Of a DNA stretch of 25,533 nt, positions 10,444 to 24,470 are shown piece by piece (the first letter of the stretch is position 1; every line of letters begins with the position of its first letter). This DNA comes from a virus (Duplodnaviria > Caudoviricetes). The notes under the pieces are model-generated. The model saw only the letters and a program-made list of their open reading frames with translations, was not told the DNA's origin and did not search any database. The translations under genes were made by a program, and so were the position numbers. The stretch is taken from positions 1 to 25,533 of the IMG/VR virus record IMGVR_UViG_3300032011_000115. The stretch is one strand, 5' to 3'.

Positions 10444-11739
10444 TTAATTAAACGTTTTCTTTTTTATTTTCAATTTTGAAGAATCAAGCCCACTAATTGC
10501 TTTTACTTTTAAACCACCAACAAATATTTCTCCAGATGCCGTTTTACGTGGCTCTAAATTTATATTTTTTGATTTAGCCATTGTTTCTTTAATTGCATCG
10601 GTTTTACCTTGCTCATAAAAATGATTAGCTATAGTATCAGCATTTTGTGCGGCATATAAAGCTTTATGATAACCTCTGGCATCTTGTATCTCTCCTTTGT
10701 CATTTAAGAACGTCTTAATAAAGTTCGATATATCACTTTGGTTATCGGCAACAGTTGAAGGATCTTTTATTCCGTATCTGAATTTTTTATCTCCTAATTT
10801 AAAATCAAAACCTTTGAATTCGTTGTTGAGAAGGCTTTTTGTTTCAGTTACAAATCTTTCATGTTTAGCTTCACTTGCTTGCTTGTCTTCGTTATAGCGA
10901 TTGAAAAAATCCATAGCTTTTTGTTGTTCTTGAGTAACACCGGGTCTCAACTTGATTTCAGCATAATACTCTTTTTTAAGATCTTCCAAAAAACTTTTGG
11001 CTTTCGCTATCTCTTCTTTATAAGCGAGTTTTTTCTTTTTTATATCTCGCTCATCATCAACCTCTTCATCATATTGAAAAGTATCTTCAATAATAAAATT
11101 TACTTCTTCAGTATTTAAATGAGGTTTAGCTTTTTTGTAATATTCTTGTAGTAACAGACCGTTGTCAACATTGCTATAATCAGCATTTAATCTAGCGTAG
11201 TCTTCAACAGTTCCACCTGTTTCTTTCATGAATTTTACTAATTTTTCTACATTTTCAGGAAGTTCTTGTGTTTTATCTTCCTGTAATATTTTTTCCTGTT
11301 CCGGTAAGGTAGTGGTAGTTTCAGTGCTTACATCCACTCCTGTTTCGTTAGAATTATCTTCTTCATCTGTAATCTCTTGTATTGGTGAATCAGATTTTTC
11401 TTCTTTTACTTCTTCTTCTTTTTTATCTTCAATAGTGGAAATGGACTCCCGTACTTGTTCATCCATTTTAACCATATCTGCGGCTTGTTTTTCTTCAGCC
11501 AATTTTCCTGTTCCGTCGATTGAAATGGCATCTTTTTCTTCTTTTTTAGGTTTACTTAAATCTACCTTTATCATTTCAGGTACTTTATCTTCACCTAGTT
11601 GTTTTGGTTTAGTTACTTTTTTTATTTTAAAACTTCCTTCTTCTTTAGTAGGTTCAGACACTTCAGCTGTTGTAACTGCTTTAGTTTCTTCTACTTTTTC
11701 TAATACTTTTTCTTTTATTTTTGTTTCTTTTTTTGACAT
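10444..11739 (-). CDS. Putative scaffolding/capsid assembly protein
   Basis: Likely start is ATG 11739 (MSKKETK, 431 aa); the track start at 11784 overlaps the portal gene and translates the AT-only leader. Glu/Lys-rich disordered N-terminal half, then LPENVEKLVKFMKETGGTVEDYARLN and a coiled-coil region. Lies between portal and capsid genes. Confidence 0.65.
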   Translation of the reverse strand: MSKKETKIKEKVLEKVEETKAVTTAEVSEPTKEEGSFKIKKVTKPKQLGEDKVPEMIKVDLSKPKKEEKDAISIDGTGKLAEEKQAADMVKMDEQVRESISTIEDKKEEEVKEEKSDSPIQEITDEEDNSNETGVDVSTETTTTLPEQEKILQEDKTQELPENVEKLVKFMKETGGTVEDYARLNADYSNVDNGLLLQEYYKKAKPHLNTEEVNFIIEDTFQYDEEVDDERDIKKKKLAYKEEIAKAKSFLEDLKKEYYAEIKLRPGVTQEQQKAMDFFNRYNEDKQASEAKHERFVTETKSLLNNEFKGFDFKLGDKKFRYGIKDPSTVADNQSDISNFIKTFLNDKGEIQDARGYHKALYAAQNADTIANHFYEQGKTDAIKETMAKSKNINLEPRKTASGEIFVGGLKVKAISGLDSSKLKIKKKTFN

Positions 11740-11770
11740 AATATAATAATATAAAATTAATAATAAATTT

Positions 11771-14182: not shown

Positions 14183-16405
14183 CTAATTTAGTATTTTTGA
14201 ATTTACTCCTTTATTATCATATTTTTTAAAACCTAAAGGTACACTTGTTATTGTTCTTTCAGCAGTAGGTCTATATCTATTTTTATTACAAGCCATAATT
14301 GCTAATCCAGAACTTATAGACGCATCGTGTAAAGTTCTATTATTAATATTGAATTTAGCCCAATCTTCAAGAGTTTTTTGGAAATACATATCTCCATAAT
14401 TTTCTCCATTATATCCTATAAAATTTTCAATATAATCTTCTATTGCAGCAGCATGAGCTTGTTTTATATCTTCGCTAGAGTTAGGTATTCCACCTATTTC
14501 TCTTTCTGTTACAGATAGTTTATTATAAATTTTATCAGGTCTATTCATTGAGTACCCTCGGTAACCTCTTCTTTTTAAATAATACAATAATCGAGGTTTG
14601 TTGTTTTCTGCAAGTAATGGCATGCCATAAAAAACTAAAGCCATTAATACTTCTTCAAAAAATATTTCTGCAGTTTGTGGTCGTGCTATATATTCTAAAA
14701 AAAATGTATTAGGAGGAACATCCTCCATTGTAAATTTTGTAAGACCATGCAAAGATCCTTTTGATCCTCTACCGTCTACTGTGCCTGATATATCATAAGG
14801 GTCACAACCAAAAGCCCCACAATCATTATTACCAGGATATTTAATTCCATTTTTTATTAAGTACCTATTTTGTAAATTAATTGGAGGAACCCAAGATATA
14901 AAAAATCTTCCATTATTATTAGGAACAAATAATACTCTAGTATCTTTAATCCCACCTTCCCATTGAAAATTACCTTGAGTAACAATATTTGTGTTTCTTA
15001 AATCCTCATTATAATCAATTTGTTCGTAAATTTTTGTTAAATTAAACAAAGATTCCTTAGCTTCATCTCTAAAAGCATGTTTTTCAGTTCTGGGAAATTG
15101 ACGATAAAATTCATTTAAACTATCTTGATCATCTTTTAATCCTTCAACTTCGTTTTCCCAATGGGAAATGACCCCAATTTCAATTTGCGATCCATCGATC
15201 CCAGGTATTGCTTTTTTCGGAGTTTCAAAGACAGGTATTCCATAAGCATCAAGGTATCCTTCGTAGTTCCATTCCATAGGTATGAACAAACTATATAATC
15301 CTGAGTTAGTCTGTCCATTGCGGTTTCTTTTTGTAACATCTGATGCATCATATAATTTTTTAAAATTATTTCCTCCTTTATCTAAAGCGTTTGAAGTAGA
15401 ACCCATCATACATTTTCCAACTATTCTACTTCCTAACCTTAATGTGGTTTTTGTGACCCTCCAGTTGTTGAGGATGTTGTCGGGCCTCTCCCATTTCCCT
15501 GATTCATCATGGGCGAGAAGTTGTAATTTCTCCCCATCGTACGAGTTGTCCCCGGTATTCTTCCAGTCGATCGTTGTGTCCAATCCTTGTATTTCTTCAA
15601 CTTTGGTGTTTTCGTCCAACTTCTTTCTCGTAAGTTTGGATGCTGGTACTCTATAGGCAAGTTCCGTTTTGGGCCTGTCCATACCGTCTTGAATCGGTTT
15701 GAAGAAAAATGGGTAGTTAACCGATATCGGTACAACTTTATCTGTAAACATCTTTTTAGCATCGGCTCCAGTCTTAGATAAAATTCCGTATCGTGAATCA
15801 CTGGATATGGTTGCTTGGTGTACCAATTCTGAAGACGCCATGAACGAAAAGCCAGACCGTCTATTTTTAAGGTAGCACATTCCATAACATCTGGTATCCA
15901 ACTTACAGGCCTCCCAGAAAATGAAGAATAATCTGTTCGATTCCCTAAATTCTGCTGACCCAACATCAATCTTGGTCCATTGCAGGTACATGTAATGAGA
16001 ACCAGTAATGTAAGTAGGATTACCTTTATTGTAGAACCAAAAACCTTCTTCACGTCTTTTAAATTCTTCGTCAATATAATCATACCATTTATTTTTAAAA
16101 TCAAGAGATCTATCATTCCAATCAAAAACTGTTTTAAGTTTGGATAATTCTTTTGGATAGTTAAAAACCTCCCAATACTGTTCATCTTTCTTTTTTGCTC
16201 TTTTATATACTGTTTTTTCGAGTGGTAATGCAATCTTTAGACCTTGGATTTCATATATTTCGCCAATTTCTCCAGTTTTGCTGATAACCACAATATCATT
16301 TTCTTTATCATAACCTTGTTTCCATTTTTTATATCTATTGTTTCTTTTTATTACATTAGATTTAATATGATTAGGTAAAATTTTATATAAAGTTTGTGTG
16401 TACAT
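14183..16405 (-). CDS. terL: Terminase large subunit
   Basis: 740 aa. Walker A-like LKNRRSGFS, Walker B LLAHDESGKW, coupling motif MMGSTSN, nuclease motifs GAFGCDPYD, LAENNKP and HDASISSGLA. Confidence 0.9.
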   Translation of the reverse strand: MYTQTLYKILPNHIKSNVIKRNNRYKKWKQGYDKENDIVVISKTGEIGEIYEIQGLKIALPLEKTVYKRAKKKDEQYWEVFNYPKELSKLKTVFDWNDRSLDFKNKWYDYIDEEFKRREEGFWFYNKGNPTYITGSHYMYLQWTKIDVGSAEFRESNRLFFIFWEACKLDTRCYGMCYLKNRRSGFSFMASSELVHQATISSDSRYGILSKTGADAKKMFTDKVVPISVNYPFFFKPIQDGMDRPKTELAYRVPASKLTRKKLDENTKVEEIQGLDTTIDWKNTGDNSYDGEKLQLLAHDESGKWERPDNILNNWRVTKTTLRLGSRIVGKCMMGSTSNALDKGGNNFKKLYDASDVTKRNRNGQTNSGLYSLFIPMEWNYEGYLDAYGIPVFETPKKAIPGIDGSQIEIGVISHWENEVEGLKDDQDSLNEFYRQFPRTEKHAFRDEAKESLFNLTKIYEQIDYNEDLRNTNIVTQGNFQWEGGIKDTRVLFVPNNNGRFFISWVPPINLQNRYLIKNGIKYPGNNDCGAFGCDPYDISGTVDGRGSKGSLHGLTKFTMEDVPPNTFFLEYIARPQTAEIFFEEVLMALVFYGMPLLAENNKPRLLYYLKRRGYRGYSMNRPDKIYNKLSVTEREIGGIPNSSEDIKQAHAAAIEDYIENFIGYNGENYGDMYFQKTLEDWAKFNINNRTLHDASISSGLAIMACNKNRYRPTAERTITSVPLGFKKYDNKGVNSKILN
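15136..15351 (-). CDS. Possible second nested ORF in the terL +1 frame (71 aa, basic)
   Basis: Same frame as the larger nested ORF. terL codons here are enriched in C/G endings (CGC, GTC, CCG, GGG ATC, TCG, GGG GTC, TCC). Confidence 0.3.
   Translation of the reverse strand: MMHQMLQKETAMDRLTQDYIVCSYLWNGTTKDTLMLMEYLSLKLRKKQYLGSMDRKLKLGSFPIGKTKLKD
15439..16053 (-). CDS. Candidate overprinted gene in the terL +1 frame encoding a lipoprotein-like exported protein (204 aa from GTG 16053; frame open from 16233)
   Basis: 264 stop-free codons. GTG start gives MKKVFGSTIKVILLTLLVLITC. GC content is locally raised and drops at the nested stop. Confidence 0.6.
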   Translation of the reverse strand: MKKVFGSTIKVILLTLLVLITCTCNGPRLMLGQQNLGNRTDYSSFSGRPVSWIPDVMECATLKIDGLAFRSWRLQNWYTKQPYPVIHDTEFYLRLEPMLKRCLQIKLYRYRLTTHFSSNRFKTVWTGPKRNLPIEYQHPNLRERSWTKTPKLKKYKDWTQRSTGRIPGTTRTMGRNYNFSPMMNQGNGRGPTTSSTTGGSQKPH

Positions 16406-16677
16406 TATCGAGATCTATTTTCTGCGAATCCTTTAAAGTTATTTCCGCGATTTTCTTCTTTAATCTCTTTTAGCATATTCTCTTCTTCTTCTATACGTGT
16501 GAGTATTTCAAAAGCATCAAAAATAGCTAATTTTTTAGTTGCTGCTGCATTTTTTAATCTATCAGCAGAAACATCATCTTCTGAGTCTACTATTTTTTCC
16601 TTAGCAACCTTAATTAATTCTTCAACAGCTTTTTGCCCAGCTTGGATTATACTCTTTTTGGTTTGCTTTGTGTTCAT
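16405..16677 (-). CDS. Small helical protein immediately upstream of terL, candidate terminase small subunit
   Basis: 90 aa, helical (ADRLKNAAATKKLAIFDAFEIL); TAATG stop/start overlap with terL. The function is inferred from position only. Confidence 0.45.
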   Translation of the reverse strand: MNTKQTKKSIIQAGQKAVEELIKVAKEKIVDSEDDVSADRLKNAAATKKLAIFDAFEILTRIEEEENMLKEIKEENRGNNFKGFAENRSR

Positions 16678-17212
16678 ATTTAATTACAATATCATTTGAT
16701 TCCATACAATATAAAAGCTCATTATCAATTATAAATTCAAATTCTCTTAATGGATTAAATCCAATAACATCACCTGGATTGATATTAAGCACTTCTAGTG
16801 AACTATTACCATATTTTAGTATACCAGTATTCTTTATAATTTTTTCATCTTCTGATACCGGTTTTACAAAACAATAATTTTCATTAGTATTCCATGTATT
16901 GTTTCTATAATACATATAAACTTGAGAAGGAATTGCAAAGTATAAATCATCTTTAAAATATTTACTACTATTTACAGACTTACCTTTCATATTATAATAT
17001 CTTCTAAATAAATTATGATGAACTATAACTTTATCTCCTTTATTTATAGATGTTTTATATACAAGTGGAACAGACACAACTTCTGCTTCTCTATTTATAA
17101 ATTTATGATTAGATATACTAGAATTTATGATTAATTCTTTATTTTCAATATTAATTTTATTTTTATATCTTTCACCTATAGGTTTTATAATAAATTGATA
17201 TAAACTATTCAT
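16622..17212 (-). CDS. GroES-like co-chaperonin with two tandem GroES-fold domains
   Basis: 196 aa. Domain 1: FIIKP...EAEVVSVP...INKGDKVIV. Domain 2: CFVKPV...TGILKYG...INPGDVIGF...EFIIDNELLYCMESNDIVIKY. Each follows the GroES pattern. Confidence 0.65.
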   Translation of the reverse strand: MNSLYQFIIKPIGERYKNKINIENKELIINSSISNHKFINREAEVVSVPLVYKTSINKGDKVIVHHNLFRRYYNMKGKSVNSSKYFKDDLYFAIPSQVYMYYRNNTWNTNENYCFVKPVSEDEKIIKNTGILKYGNSSLEVLNINPGDVIGFNPLREFEFIIDNELLYCMESNDIVIKYEHKANQKEYNPSWAKSC

Positions 17213-18497: not shown

Positions 18498-18917
18498 TTA
18501 TTTATGTTTATTATTTCCGAATACTTTTTCAACTCCACGAGAACCGAAATAGCCTCCAATTACTATTGTAAGAAGTCCAGTGATAGAATCTAAGGGGTAA
18601 CTTAAATACCATCCTACTACATAACTTACTGTTAAGAATATTAATACTATTGGCCGTACATTAGCCGCAAGCCAGGCCCCTGATTTTGCATCTGCAACCC
18701 ACCTTTTAGTTGTTCCATCTATTTCAGCCTTTTCAATTGATAGTTTCTTTAATGCTATAGCTTTATCTTCAGCAGATAAACTACTATTACCGGATATTAA
18801 TCCAGAGATTACATTACCTGGTAATATAGCATCACCAACAATTCCTAAGATACTAGGGGCTTTTTCAATAAGAAATTTACCTACCCCAGTATCTTTAAAA
18901 GGCTTTTTTTTACTCAT
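18498..18917 (-). CDS. Holin, GTA_holin_3TM-like
   Basis: 139 aa. Signature RWVAD...WLAANVRP, hydrophobic segments IVLIFLTVSYVVGWYL and ITGLLTIVIGGYFG, ending in YFGSRGVEK. Confidence 0.75.
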   Translation of the reverse strand: MSKKKPFKDTGVGKFLIEKAPSILGIVGDAILPGNVISGLISGNSSLSAEDKAIALKKLSIEKAEIDGTTKRWVADAKSGAWLAANVRPIVLIFLTVSYVVGWYLSYPLDSITGLLTIVIGGYFGSRGVEKVFGNNKHK

Positions 18918-19294: not shown

Positions 19295-19621
19295 TTATGT
19301 GTGTTTATGTGCTTTTTTCTCCCAACTTAACGTCTTACTACCTTCTTTTATATTAGCTCGAGGATGAATTTGCCACTTATCATTTACTGATTCACGACTA
19401 TATACATTTTCATCATCATAATACAAAAGACCAGATTGAATGTCATTAATATGAATTTGTTCATGATCAATAACTTCTTGTCTTTGCTTAGGATCTGTTA
19501 TTTTATTATTAATTAATATATTTCCATTTCTATCAGCTTTACCTAATACACCATCTTCCATGTTAATTTCATGGACTGGAGCTGTTGCTACGTAAGGAGG
19601 GTTATTAAGTTTAAAAGCCAT
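19295..19621 (-). CDS. Small zincin-like metallopeptidase
   Basis: 108 aa. VLGKA...NILIN strands, EVIDHEQIH (HExxH) helix and downstream WEKKAH supplying a candidate third-ligand Glu. Confidence 0.7.
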   Translation of the reverse strand: MAFKLNNPPYVATAPVHEINMEDGVLGKADRNGNILINNKITDPKQRQEVIDHEQIHINDIQSGLLYYDDENVYSRESVNDKWQIHPRANIKEGSKTLSWEKKAHKHT

Positions 19622-22214: not shown

Positions 22215-22661
22215 TTATCTATTTTTATCTTTGTTAACGTTTTTTATTGCAGTTATTAAAACTTTATCTGTATAAGTTTTTCCATGCATAATAGAATTTC
22301 TTCTTTTACTTGTTGGAACATCTTCTTCTCCAAGCATAATTCGGTACATTCTTGCTATTAGTTGTCTACACTTGAAAGAAACTTTATAGATATTGTACTT
22401 CTGAGTTGTTCTGTTTCGATTTCTCCAAACTACAATCCAATTGTTTTTTATCATTTTGTTCCAGCGTCTATTATCCCAACTGTAAGCATAAGTACCGATC
22501 TTAAAATCTTGCTTAGTAAAAAGATCCATACAATCGAAGTATATTAATAGTTCTAAATCCGCATCGTTTAAGTTATTGTTTCTACAAGCCCATTTTCTTA
22601 TAAGCCGATAGTGTTTTAATAAGTTTAAATCCTTTATATTACTTGAATCTAATTTTCTCAT
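22215..22661 (-). CDS. Putative winged helix-turn-helix (MarR-like) DNA-binding protein
   Basis: 148 aa. LNDADLELLIYF helix, FTKQDF, RWNKMIKNNWIVV, wing RNRNRTTQKYNIYKVSFKCRQLI. ATGA overlap with groES. Confidence 0.55.
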   Translation of the reverse strand: MRKLDSSNIKDLNLLKHYRLIRKWACRNNNLNDADLELLIYFDCMDLFTKQDFKIGTYAYSWDNRRWNKMIKNNWIVVWRNRNRTTQKYNIYKVSFKCRQLIARMYRIMLGEEDVPTSKRRNSIMHGKTYTDKVLITAIKNVNKDKNR

Positions 22662-22921
22662 AAAACAACAACAACATCTTGTAATTTAATAAGAGTAAAT
22701 TTATCTTTGTTGAATTCAATACCATGACCTGCGTGTCTGTCATAATAAATCACATCATCTTGTTTTAAACCTTTTATATCATCACTTACAGAAATTATAA
22801 TAGCTTTTCTGTATCTTATATCTTCACGATCTTTTTCAATAATTAGTAATCCCCCTTTTGTTTTATCGGTTTTTACTTTCTCAGGTTTAATTATAATATT
22901 ATTTCCTATTGCTTTCATCAA
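22658..22921 (-). CDS. groES: Co-chaperonin GroES
   Basis: 87 aa. MKAIGNNIIIKP, mobile loop KTKGGLLI, IISVS...LKQDDVIYYDRHAG, LIKLQDVVVVL. Directly downstream of groEL. Confidence 0.85.
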   Translation of the reverse strand: MMKAIGNNIIIKPEKVKTDKTKGGLLIIEKDREDIRYRKAIIISVSDDIKGLKQDDVIYYDRHAGHGIEFNKDKFTLIKLQDVVVVL

Positions 22922-24470
22922 TTCTTAAATTATTGATTACACAATCTGTTGATAATATCGTTGCGGCTACTGAAGCAGCATTTATCAAAGCGCTTTTAGT
23001 TACTAGTAAAGGATCAATGATACCAGCTTCTATCATATTAACTGGTTCACCTGTTATTACATCTAAACCTTTACCTTGTAATTTCCCCATTATTTTAGGC
23101 AATGAATCACTAGGACATTCAATCCCAGCATTATCTAAAATAACTCTAAATGGAGATTCTATTGCTTTTAATAAAATCTTTTCCCCTTCAGTATTTGTTT
23201 TAATATTTTGTCCAGCGTTTAGTAGAGCTATACCACCACCGGGTACAATACCTTCTTTTATAGCGGCTTTTGTCGCACAAATTGCATCTTCTATTCTATC
23301 AGATTTTTCTTTTAATTCTATATCTGAATTTGCCCCTACTTTTACTATAGCTATTTTAGCTGATAATCTTGCTAATCTTTTTTCTAATCTTATAAGATGT
23401 GCAGGATTAGGTTTGTTAGCTAATTCTTCTTTAACTGCTTTTATAGCATTTAAAACTGCTTCTGTAGGTTCACCTACTTGCAGAATAGTATCTTTTTCAT
23501 CAGTAACGGACTTTAAACAACTCCCTAAAAATTCAGGTTGTATTAAATCCATATCATCTCCAAGATCTTCATTTATGACAGTAGCTCCTGTAAGCATAGC
23601 TAGATCATCTAATGTTTCTCTTTTATTAACTCCAAATGTTGGAGCATTAATGATATTTACTTTTATGTTACCTTTTGTTTTATTCATTGCAAGAGTAGCC
23701 ATTATTGGGGCTTCTACATCTGCTATGATAAGTAAAGGTGTATTCTTTTTTATAATATGTTCTAAGATAGATTGAATTTGTCTTATATTATCTATCGGAG
23801 ATTCTATTAAAAGTACTGCGGGTTTTTCAAGCTCTGCAGTCTTTTTTGCTTTATTAGTAATAAAATGAGGATTAGTAAGACCTTTATTATACTGAACTCC
23901 ATCTACTAATTCTACTTCTGTCTCAGGTAATGAAGAATGTTCCATCATCACCACCCCTGTTTGACCAACTGCTCTGAATGCATCACCAATAATTTTTCCA
24001 AGTTGTGGTTCATTATTAGTAGAAATAGTTGCAATTTGATCAATCATATCCCCTTTAACAGGGATACTAATTTTTTCTAAGTATTTAACTACTTTTTTTA
24101 CAGCTTTATTAATATTTTCTTTTAATTCTCTAGAATTTATATCTGCACTTTTAGCTTCTTCAAGTATTGCATGTGCTAAAACTGTTGCTGTTGTTGTGCC
24201 ATCACCTGCTTCGCTAACTGTTTTTCTAGCAGCTTCTTTTAAAAGTGTAGCACCCATATTTTCTACAGGATCTAATAAAACTATTGAATTTGCTACTGTA
24301 ACCCCATCTTTAGTTATAACTGGGGTACCTTTATCATCTTCAAGTAAAACACACTTGCCACTAGCCCCTAAAGTGGAGCTAACAGCTTGCGTGAGTTTAT
24401 CAATTCCTTTAAACACTTGACTTTGAGCTTGTTGCCCAAAATTAAGATTTTTGACTATTAAGTCTGACAT
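22899..24470 (-). CDS. groEL: Phage-encoded chaperonin GroEL
   Basis: 523 aa. Motifs ITKDGVTVA, AGDGTTTATVLA, PLLIIAD, EKRLARLS, IEDAICATKAAIKEGIVPGGG, GIIDPLLVTKSALINAASVA. No GGM tail. Confidence 0.95.
   Translation of the reverse strand: MSDLIVKNLNFGQQAQSQVFKGIDKLTQAVSSTLGASGKCVLLEDDKGTPVITKDGVTVANSIVLLDPVENMGATLLKEAARKTVSEAGDGTTTATVLAHAILEEAKSADINSRELKENINKAVKKVVKYLEKISIPVKGDMIDQIATISTNNEPQLGKIIGDAFRAVGQTGVVMMEHSSLPETEVELVDGVQYNKGLTNPHFITNKAKKTAELEKPAVLLIESPIDNIRQIQSILEHIIKKNTPLLIIADVEAPIMATLAMNKTKGNIKVNIINAPTFGVNKRETLDDLAMLTGATVINEDLGDDMDLIQPEFLGSCLKSVTDEKDTILQVGEPTEAVLNAIKAVKEELANKPNPAHLIRLEKRLARLSAKIAIVKVGANSDIELKEKSDRIEDAICATKAAIKEGIVPGGGIALLNAGQNIKTNTEGEKILLKAIESPFRVILDNAGIECPSDSLPKIMGKLQGKGLDVITGEPVNMIEAGIIDPLLVTKSALINAASVAATILSTDCVINNLRIDESNRK

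Follow-up and report, generated by a model that had tools for sequence, protein, structure and literature searches.

A gene overprinted in the +1 frame of the terminase large subunit gene of a marine phage lineage, with a predicted export leader

The virus record IMGVR_UViG_3300032011_000115 (Duplodnaviria; Caudoviricetes), whose whole length of 25,533 nucleotides (25.5 kb) is referred to here as the window, carries groEL/groES, a holin-like gene, the terminase large subunit gene (terL), a portal gene and virion genes. Inside terL, on the same strand and shifted into its +1 frame, lies a second long open reading frame (ORF), hereafter the nested gene, whose product would be a basic protein with an export leader. 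The host gene and the parts of the nested frame, with residues counted from the preferred start codon, are listed below.

14183..16405, minus strand: terL, terminase large subunit and host gene, 740 amino acids (aa); PHROG 6681, E 7e-163
15439..16236, minus strand: entire stop-free +1 stretch, 265 codons plus stop; the portion upstream of about terL codon 108 is unconserved
15439..16083, minus strand: nested +1-frame gene, preferred coding sequence from ATG 16083 (terL codon 108) to TAA, 214 aa; called from conservation of the frame and of the ATG
15985..16083, minus strand: predicted export leader, residues 1-33, a basic N-region followed by a hydrophobic core at 15994-16023 (residues 21-30); called from sequence selection
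15982..15984, minus strand: Cys34, the selected cysteine (terL Leu141 written YTG), with Thr at -1; candidate lipid-attachment or disulfide site
15442..15981, minus strand: mature region, 180 aa after Cys34; polar, isoelectric point (pI) 10.5, no confident fold
15442-15618, minus strand: Ser/Thr/Gly/Arg tail of the mature region, absent from many relatives

The +1 frame of terL is free of stops across terL codons 57-321 and closes with a TAA at 15441-15439; these 265 codons agree with the roughly 264 reported in an earlier, sequence-only reading of this DNA. The five stops that it noted beyond are also present, at terL codons 322-341 directly past the nested stop, but they say little, since most of them also occur in homologues that lack the gene. 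In 12 other genes of the window, the +1 frame runs for at most 27-49 codons without a stop, and the analytic probability of a 265-codon open stretch under the codon usage of the genome is 3e-13. Codon shuffling, which the same reading had put forward as a check, bears this out: synonymous resampling gave at least 265 open codons in 0/5000 runs under each of genome, terL-wide and uniform usage, and in 2/5000 runs under the raised codon usage of the overlap itself. GC content at third codon positions (GC3) in the window's terL reaches 0.49 over codons 130-320, as against 0.15 past codon 330 and 0.08-0.18 in other genes; the earlier hand counts of GC per 60 nucleotides (31, 27, 17 and 17) and the 13 successive codons ending in G or C are exact.

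The frame is also kept open in relatives. Among 80 IMG/VR homologues with 75-100% identity, one of them uninformative, 59/79 retain the open frame with raised GC3, and 20/79 have stops, mostly with background GC3; the conserved absence of +1 stops expected by the sequence-only reading therefore holds for the former and is lost in the latter. Around 8600 IMG/VR stretches match one TerL motif of this lineage, and in an unranked TerL-motif sample of 120 the frame was open in 48 records and closed in 64, the other 8 being too short, which makes 48/112 open. From the sister clade B (about 68% identity; the window belongs to clade A), a biased query gave 80 loci, every one of them open, though one was covered only from codon 142; in an unranked sample the frame was open in 101/117 informative loci, and 15 of the 16 closed ones carry a different TerL motif. 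An outgroup clade of higher GC has the open frame in 0/81 loci. The open frame is thus confined to clades A and B, a narrower range than that of its host gene. None of the other frames of terL, antisense and +2 among them, is kept open in relatives, and we accordingly rejected these as the selected frame.

The codon composition of terL follows the nested frame closely. In relatives, the nested stop falls at terL codons 224, 263-272, 294 or 317-328, and in every lineage the rise in GC3 persists to that lineage's nested stop and no further. Codons 296-316 show this: GC3 there is 0.72 in lineages that close the nested frame after them and 0.29-0.34 in those that close it earlier. The GC of first and second codon positions is flat. 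Because the GC3 boundary tracks each lineage's own stop while positions 1 and 2 stay flat, the readings by chance and by import of the ATPase core from a phage of higher GC, the latter an alternative offered in the sequence-only reading, fall away. Taken together, the sequence comparisons indicate that the nested +1 frame is a real overprinted gene maintained by selection.

A tree of the TerL C-terminus and portal, both outside the overlap, unites clades A and B in one clade (support 99/97; 39 hand-picked rows); one quicker FastTree run instead grouped clade B, weakly supported, with the outgroup, but the longer alignment supports A + B. Closed members are scattered through clade A, requiring 18-24 changes on three trees. 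The simplest history, and a likely one given these sequences, is a single origin in the ancestor of A and B followed by repeated loss, in some cases by recombination, since GC3 is mosaic in two records (L499 and L508). A profile search with the nested protein among 1.84 billion representatives returned 143 hits, 132 of which fit the constraint imposed by TerL on its +1 frame at 85% or more of its tight sites. No stand-alone homologue was found, the remaining 11 apparently being chimeras that switch frame, fragments, or shadows of more distant terL genes. Open +1 frames without the hydrophobic leader also occur in more distant terL genes (P0135, P0138), where they represent either chance or an independent overprint. 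Two records of terL itself are unusual in their context: a 117-kb contig (G010:C7; L248, L263) carries two different terL genes, being either two phage genomes joined or chimeric, and a closed-type terL (L298) lies in a Saprospiraceae bin, on a contig of 3 Mb, a possible integration or misassembly.

All start codons named in the sequence-only reading are present (GTG 16053 and ATG 16083, 16116 and 16185), but the one it favoured, GTG 16053, is not supported: a start codon of any kind stands at that position in 26% of 46 open clade A relatives, as against an ATG at the 16083 position in 87%. A length of 214 aa is also what many database homologues have been annotated with, and from these comparisons ATG 16083 appears to be the best start for the nested gene of the window. 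In the unranked clade A sample, an ATG occupies codon 108 in only 25/48, and many members have a stop at codon 108 or 111 together with an ATG at 112. The upstream part of the open stretch is interrupted in relatives by +1 stops at terL codons 87, 90, 101 and 111.

The leader bears several marks of selection. At codons 126-141 of clade A, third-position A is purged to 0.07 in open relatives, compared with 0.26 in closed ones; Leu is fixed at 91-100% at five leader sites, and leader hydropathy is 2.7 in open versus 2.1 in closed relatives. Synonymous variation, which the sequence-only reading had expected to be suppressed, is so under the leader (0.27 vs 0.41) but not under the mature part (0.51 vs 0.42). 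Clade B has its hydrophobic segment at codons 108-124, closing with GSC at 125, 16 codons upstream of the clade A site; a start codon stands at codon 94 in 33/33 genomes, 32 residues ahead of the Cys. At the site of one clade's hydrophobic core, the other clade is neutral or hydrophilic. Leaders of nearly equal length (32 residues in B, 34 in A) thus sit at different places in terL, and this is the strongest sign that export is what selection maintains in the nested protein.

These leaders leave an imprint on TerL. Cys34 requires TerL Leu141 to be written TTG or CTG, as it is in 46/46 open clade A genomes compared with a background of 12%, and the cysteine itself is present in 46/46 open versus 4/18 (22%) closed clade A relatives and, in the unranked sample, in 44/48 open versus 16/64 closed. 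The clade B leader requires Phe124 as TTC (33/33 vs 18% background), and its Cys can be encoded only if TerL codon 126 begins with a pyrimidine. All 101/101 open clade B loci have Cys or Arg at that TerL residue, either of which preserves the nested Cys, compared with Asn in 96-100% of other groups, although part of this bias could be stop avoidance after Met125. The cysteine that the sequence-only reading took for the lipobox residue, its Cys22 at terL codon 139, is by contrast forced by a TerL Met-Tyr pair and persists in 94% of gene-losing relatives; the selected Cys lies two residues later.

Whether this Cys is lipidated depends on the clade. With a basic N-region and a hydrophobic core within about 35 residues of the start, the protein has the general layout of a lipoprotein. 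We scored the lipobox against [LVI][ASTVI][GAS]C (PMC6139136) and against a PROSITE-like rule. Conforming lipoboxes occur in 33/33 clade B genomes but in 0/46 of clade A at either Cys, where Thr stands at -1; in the unranked clade B sample, 84/101 have GSC, the remaining 17/101 having GLC, with Leu at -1. TerL Tyr140 permits only Thr or Ile at the -1 position of clade A, and Thr is found in 96% of open versus 22% of closed relatives; the residue following the selected Cys is always small (S, N, G or A). Lipidation therefore seems likely in clade B and about evenly balanced in clade A. Of the lipoprotein-like envelope protein proposed in the sequence-only reading, the overprinted gene for a predicted exported, membrane-tethered product with a selected Cys stands, and the lipobox in the window's own clade does not. 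Nothing relevant to a Thr at the -1 position of a lipobox came up in the literature searched, which did not include the lipobox supplement of Kongari et al.

Past the leader, selection seems to act on bulk properties. The mature part counted from Cys34 has 181 residues, pI 10.5 and 30 K/R versus 10 D/E; few of its sites are fixed beyond what TerL forces, its two conserved Cys, which would be candidates for intermolecular disulfides, coincide with Met-Cys and Met-Phe junctions of TerL that force them, and its length varies from 99 to 207 residues among relatives. AlphaFold2 with a 79-sequence alignment gave a mean pLDDT (predicted local distance difference test) score of 39, weak evidence for disorder because the alignment is shaped by TerL. 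Searches against Pfam (with a 264-aa form), PHROGs and NCBIfam found no family match, the best E-value against PDB sequences was 0.65, and the ESM Atlas gave no usable hit. There is no C-terminal transmembrane segment, no 15-residue hydropathy window exceeding 0.7 past the leader. As far as its sequence can tell, the mature part is selected for polar, basic composition, not for sequence or fold. As for expression, RNA-library contigs from several marine runs match the region, and strand, start and frame are not readable from them; promoter-like sites number 18, fewer than the 26 in shuffles.

The lysis cassettes of relatives offer a possible counterpart of the nested protein. LppY is our label for a stand-alone Tyr/Pro-rich lipoprotein with a Ser/Thr/Asn/Gly tail (L317:11104-11541, alignment A2), first met in the closed genome G002 when long records were scanned for lipoprotein signals. 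It lies between an M15 endolysin and a holin-like gene in 6/28 loci and, in most others, beside M15 or cc96, a 96-aa transmembrane/coiled-coil protein of the lysis cassette. Its carriers comprise 28 records, 25 with terL and 23 informative; all 23 are closed, 17 of them within clade A, against a clade A background in which three in four are open (naive Fisher p 4e-9, which ignores kinship). The carriers fall in 8-13 separate closed lineages. LppY was found in 0/29 long open records (21 + 8, the 8 with two positive controls), and it was also not found in 29 closed records. The two proteins are not homologous by profile comparison (hhalign probability 0.1%), but the mature nested protein, LppY and LppW are alike in composition, being basic, aromatic and rich in S/T/N/G/Q/P. 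LppW is a second, Tyr/Trp/Asn-rich lipoprotein of 205-223 aa beside the M15 endolysin (L588:928-1542, L601-L609). A general exclusivity between the open frame and any stand-alone lipoprotein was rejected, as YfiM-like, small 59-80 aa, 208-aa and LppW types occur in open genomes.

We tentatively propose, as a reading that falls slightly short of an even chance, that the nested gene encodes an exported, probably lipid-anchored outer-membrane lysis accessory doing the job of LppY. Internal initiation on the late mRNA would produce the 214-residue protein, its N-terminal leader would direct Sec export, and a lipid anchor at Cys34 would place it at the outer membrane, the motif for which is firm only in clade B. 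There the basic, unstructured chain, exposed in the cell envelope, could help to weaken the outer membrane at lysis, the nested protein standing in for the stand-alone LppY of the lysis cassette. The role is probably accessory, because many complete relatives have neither the nested gene nor LppY. A spanin role and an expression tied to packaging by more than the shared mRNA, both put forward for the nested gene in the sequence-only reading, stay hypothetical.

Several observations weigh against this proposal. In addition to the non-conforming lipobox of clade A and the Leu at -1 in part of clade B, the exclusion between LppY and the open frame is not significant after phylogenetic correction (61 records; 7 independent pairs, of which a mean of 4.3 agree and 0 oppose; median p 0.125, range 0.03-0.25), and many of the LppY-negative records are partial. 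In two LppY carriers the leader persists together with a stub of 54 residues of the nested gene, and 8/20 closed long records have no lipoprotein by the filter used. LppW and the open frame occur together in 4/7 records, where GC3 is at background beyond codon 198. LppY found no family match in library searches. Five near-complete open clade B genomes (G001, G108, G110, G111 and G112; 91-100% complete) carry a holin-like gene, but no M15 endolysin match was found in them. A bolder version, which we regard as doubtful, holds that a de novo gene in the terminase ATPase replaced an unrelated stand-alone lipoprotein, and that both belong to an undescribed class of spanin-independent outer-membrane lysis factors of Bacteroidota phages, acting through charge and disorder and not through a fold; the nested gene would then have relocated its own signal peptide, recoded TerL and been lost whenever the stand-alone gene returned.

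The same gene and topology could instead serve superinfection exclusion, receptor masking from the periplasmic side or another envelope remodelling unconnected with lysis, which we consider unlikely though well worth keeping in view. T5 Llp is a precedent for such masking of a host receptor. An accessory trait that depends on the host would be present patchily and lost repeatedly, as the nested gene is, and many complete relatives lack both genes; the LppY cassette also holds genes for secreted outer-membrane-protein (OMP)-like and thioredoxin-like proteins. The nested gene nevertheless sits in a late packaging gene, and a conserved internal promoter motif of Bacteroidota type was not found upstream of it; receptor binding, moreover, should conserve residues, and few mature sites are fixed beyond the TerL constraint. 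On a similarly low footing stands the idea that the leader of the window's clade is an uncleaved inner-membrane anchor, with disulfide-linked oligomers formed through the Cys and the basic chain acting at that membrane in lysis timing or holin modulation. The Cys is kept despite Thr at -1 in A and Leu in some of B, and the leader is long (30-34 residues), both as an anchor would have it; the preference for Thr over the also permitted Ile, the invariably small residue past the Cys and the prevalence of GSC in clade B argue for a lipobox.

A spanin interpretation, with the nested protein as the outer-membrane partner (o-spanin) of a widely separated two-component spanin and cc96 as its inner-membrane partner (i-spanin), strikes us as improbable. 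More widely separated pairs lie beyond the reach of the method of Kongari et al. (PMC6139136), and cc96 directly follows LppY in many loci and is kept in 8/17 open records without LppY. Yet a fixed two-component spanin is unlikely because cc96 is missing from four near-complete open genomes (not found in G001, G110, G111 and G112, with only a weak match in G108); there is none in the window fragment, and the protein has no cysteine and only weak library hits, to a holin and PspC. Far less probable is entry into the +1 frame by ribosomal frameshifting, which would yield a fusion to the TerL N-terminus in place of an independent protein. Frame-switching database proteins do exist (P0019, P0020, P0048, P0049) and the clade A start varies, but the four places at which these chimeras change frame all differ, which is the pattern expected of sequencing indels, the clade B start codon at 94 is invariant and a lipobox works only near an N-terminus; we rejected this entry. 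Least probable of all is that there is no second protein, only imported GC-rich DNA, an RNA structure or chance. The flat first and second positions and the GC3 boundary speak against it, as do the stops in 81/81 loci of the higher-GC outgroup, an Rfam scan of the region that found no match, and the resampling result of 0/5000.

Among known systems, lambda Rz1 within Rz (PMC6139136) is the closest in arrangement, being a gene with a lipoprotein signal wholly in the +1 frame of another and having an unstructured mature part. The host gene here, however, is the terminase ATPase and not the partner i-spanin, and a partner is not established: a linked type II inner-membrane i-spanin is lacking, the host gene being TerL and the sole candidate, cc96, distant. 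The lambda overlap lies on a flexible linker, whereas here it covers a region of about 90% TerL identity; the mature part spans 99-207 residues versus 40 in Rz1, the nested gene can be dispensed with, and the window's clade has a non-canonical lipobox. In the accessible parts of Kongari et al. (PMC6139136), the embedded class comprises o-spanins within their own i-spanin, with no case inside an unrelated gene, and spanin-less phages make up 13% of genomes. Unimolecular spanins (u-spanins) of the T1 gp11 type share the N-terminal lipoprotein-type signal but have a C-terminal transmembrane segment that the nested protein lacks, which places it outside that class; four closed relatives encode proteins of the full u-spanin layout. 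The phiKT gp28 disruptin (10.1101/515445) resembles the proposed product in being a cationic, outer-membrane-acting lysis factor of a phage without a spanin. However, gp28 is a 56-aa predicted amphipathic helix, whereas the nested protein has 214 aa, an export leader, a selected Cys and no confident fold; with 181 mature residues and no confident helix it is not a short cationic amphipathic helix, despite its pI. LppY matches it in having a lipoprotein-type leader, a basic aromatic middle and a Ser/Thr/Asn/Gly tail, but differs in being a non-homologous, ordinary gene beside the endolysin and holin with a canonical lipobox. The accessible text of Bartlau et al. (PMC8776804) does not mention such a nested gene, and a literature search for overprinted, nested or overlapping genes in terminases, subscription journals not covered, found no report.

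Phage phylogenies use TerL as a standard marker, and its gene is annotated as coding in one frame only; yet about 200 codons of the ATPase region would be dual-coding in this very abundant marine lineage, biasing codon usage, synonymous rates and at least one TerL residue. For the birth of genes by overprinting, the family is a natural experiment: its hundreds of sequences comprise lineages that kept the gene and others that lost it, variants in length, a signal that moved, and matched controls. That the nested protein has a function is probable; if the exchange with LppY is true, it would point to a function for two families at once and bear on how spanin-less phages cross the outer membrane.

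The lysis regions of relatives hold further lipoproteins and envelope genes. A mobile envelope cassette of variable order (L317:9430-11800 in G002, and L468-L495) contains a secreted OMP-like protein (408 aa), LppY, cc96, a signal-bearing thioredoxin-like protein and the M15 endolysin; no confident family match was found for the OMP-like protein, LppY or cc96. Four closed relatives encode unannotated proteins of u-spanin layout, with a lipobox and a C-terminal transmembrane segment (L335:4807-5316, L550:5073-5489, L554:4847-5308 and L563:10675-11130), one of them directly behind the M15 endolysin. Carriers of such proteins are all closed (11 records) but are uninformative on replacement, because all lie outside clades A and B. 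A family of small lipoproteins of 59-68 aa occurs in three clade B genomes (L786:13264-13440, L792:12389-12592, L536:5166-5357), two of which have the weaker GLC nested leader.

The window's closest cultured TerLs are those of Elemovirus (46% identity) and of Cellulophaga phi38:1 and phi13:2 (37-39%). Its nearest cultured kin, in Elemovirus, Pervagoviridae and Pachyviridae, have the TerL, portal and groEL/groES set and order in common with it, as do the GroEL-encoding 'group 2' marine Flavobacteriaceae phages of Nishimura et al. (PMC5332604); the 4/4 cultured relatives checked differ in having many +1 stops in the overlap region. GroEL-encoding relatives of phi38:1 are described there as probable Flavobacteriaceae phages, and from this kinship we infer a Bacteroidota host for the window phage. 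Upstream of terL, in the late gene run on the same strand, stands the holin-like gene:

18498..18917, minus strand: holin-like gene; PHROG 3427 holin, E 7e-13

No similarity was found between the 90-aa gene upstream of terL and the long Elemovirus TerL. Two GroES-like genes (196 and 87 aa; 16622-17212 and 22658-22921, minus strand) accompany groEL. Long ORFs antisense to groEL (22909-23775, plus strand, 288 aa) and to an acidic 446-aa gene (11228-11746, plus strand, 172 aa) are probably codon-aligned shadows, not genes. Near the holin-like gene, at 19295-19621 on the minus strand, a 108-aa protein without a library match bears an HEQIH motif and is widespread in relatives; from this HExxH-type motif, we presume that it may be a small zinc peptidase.

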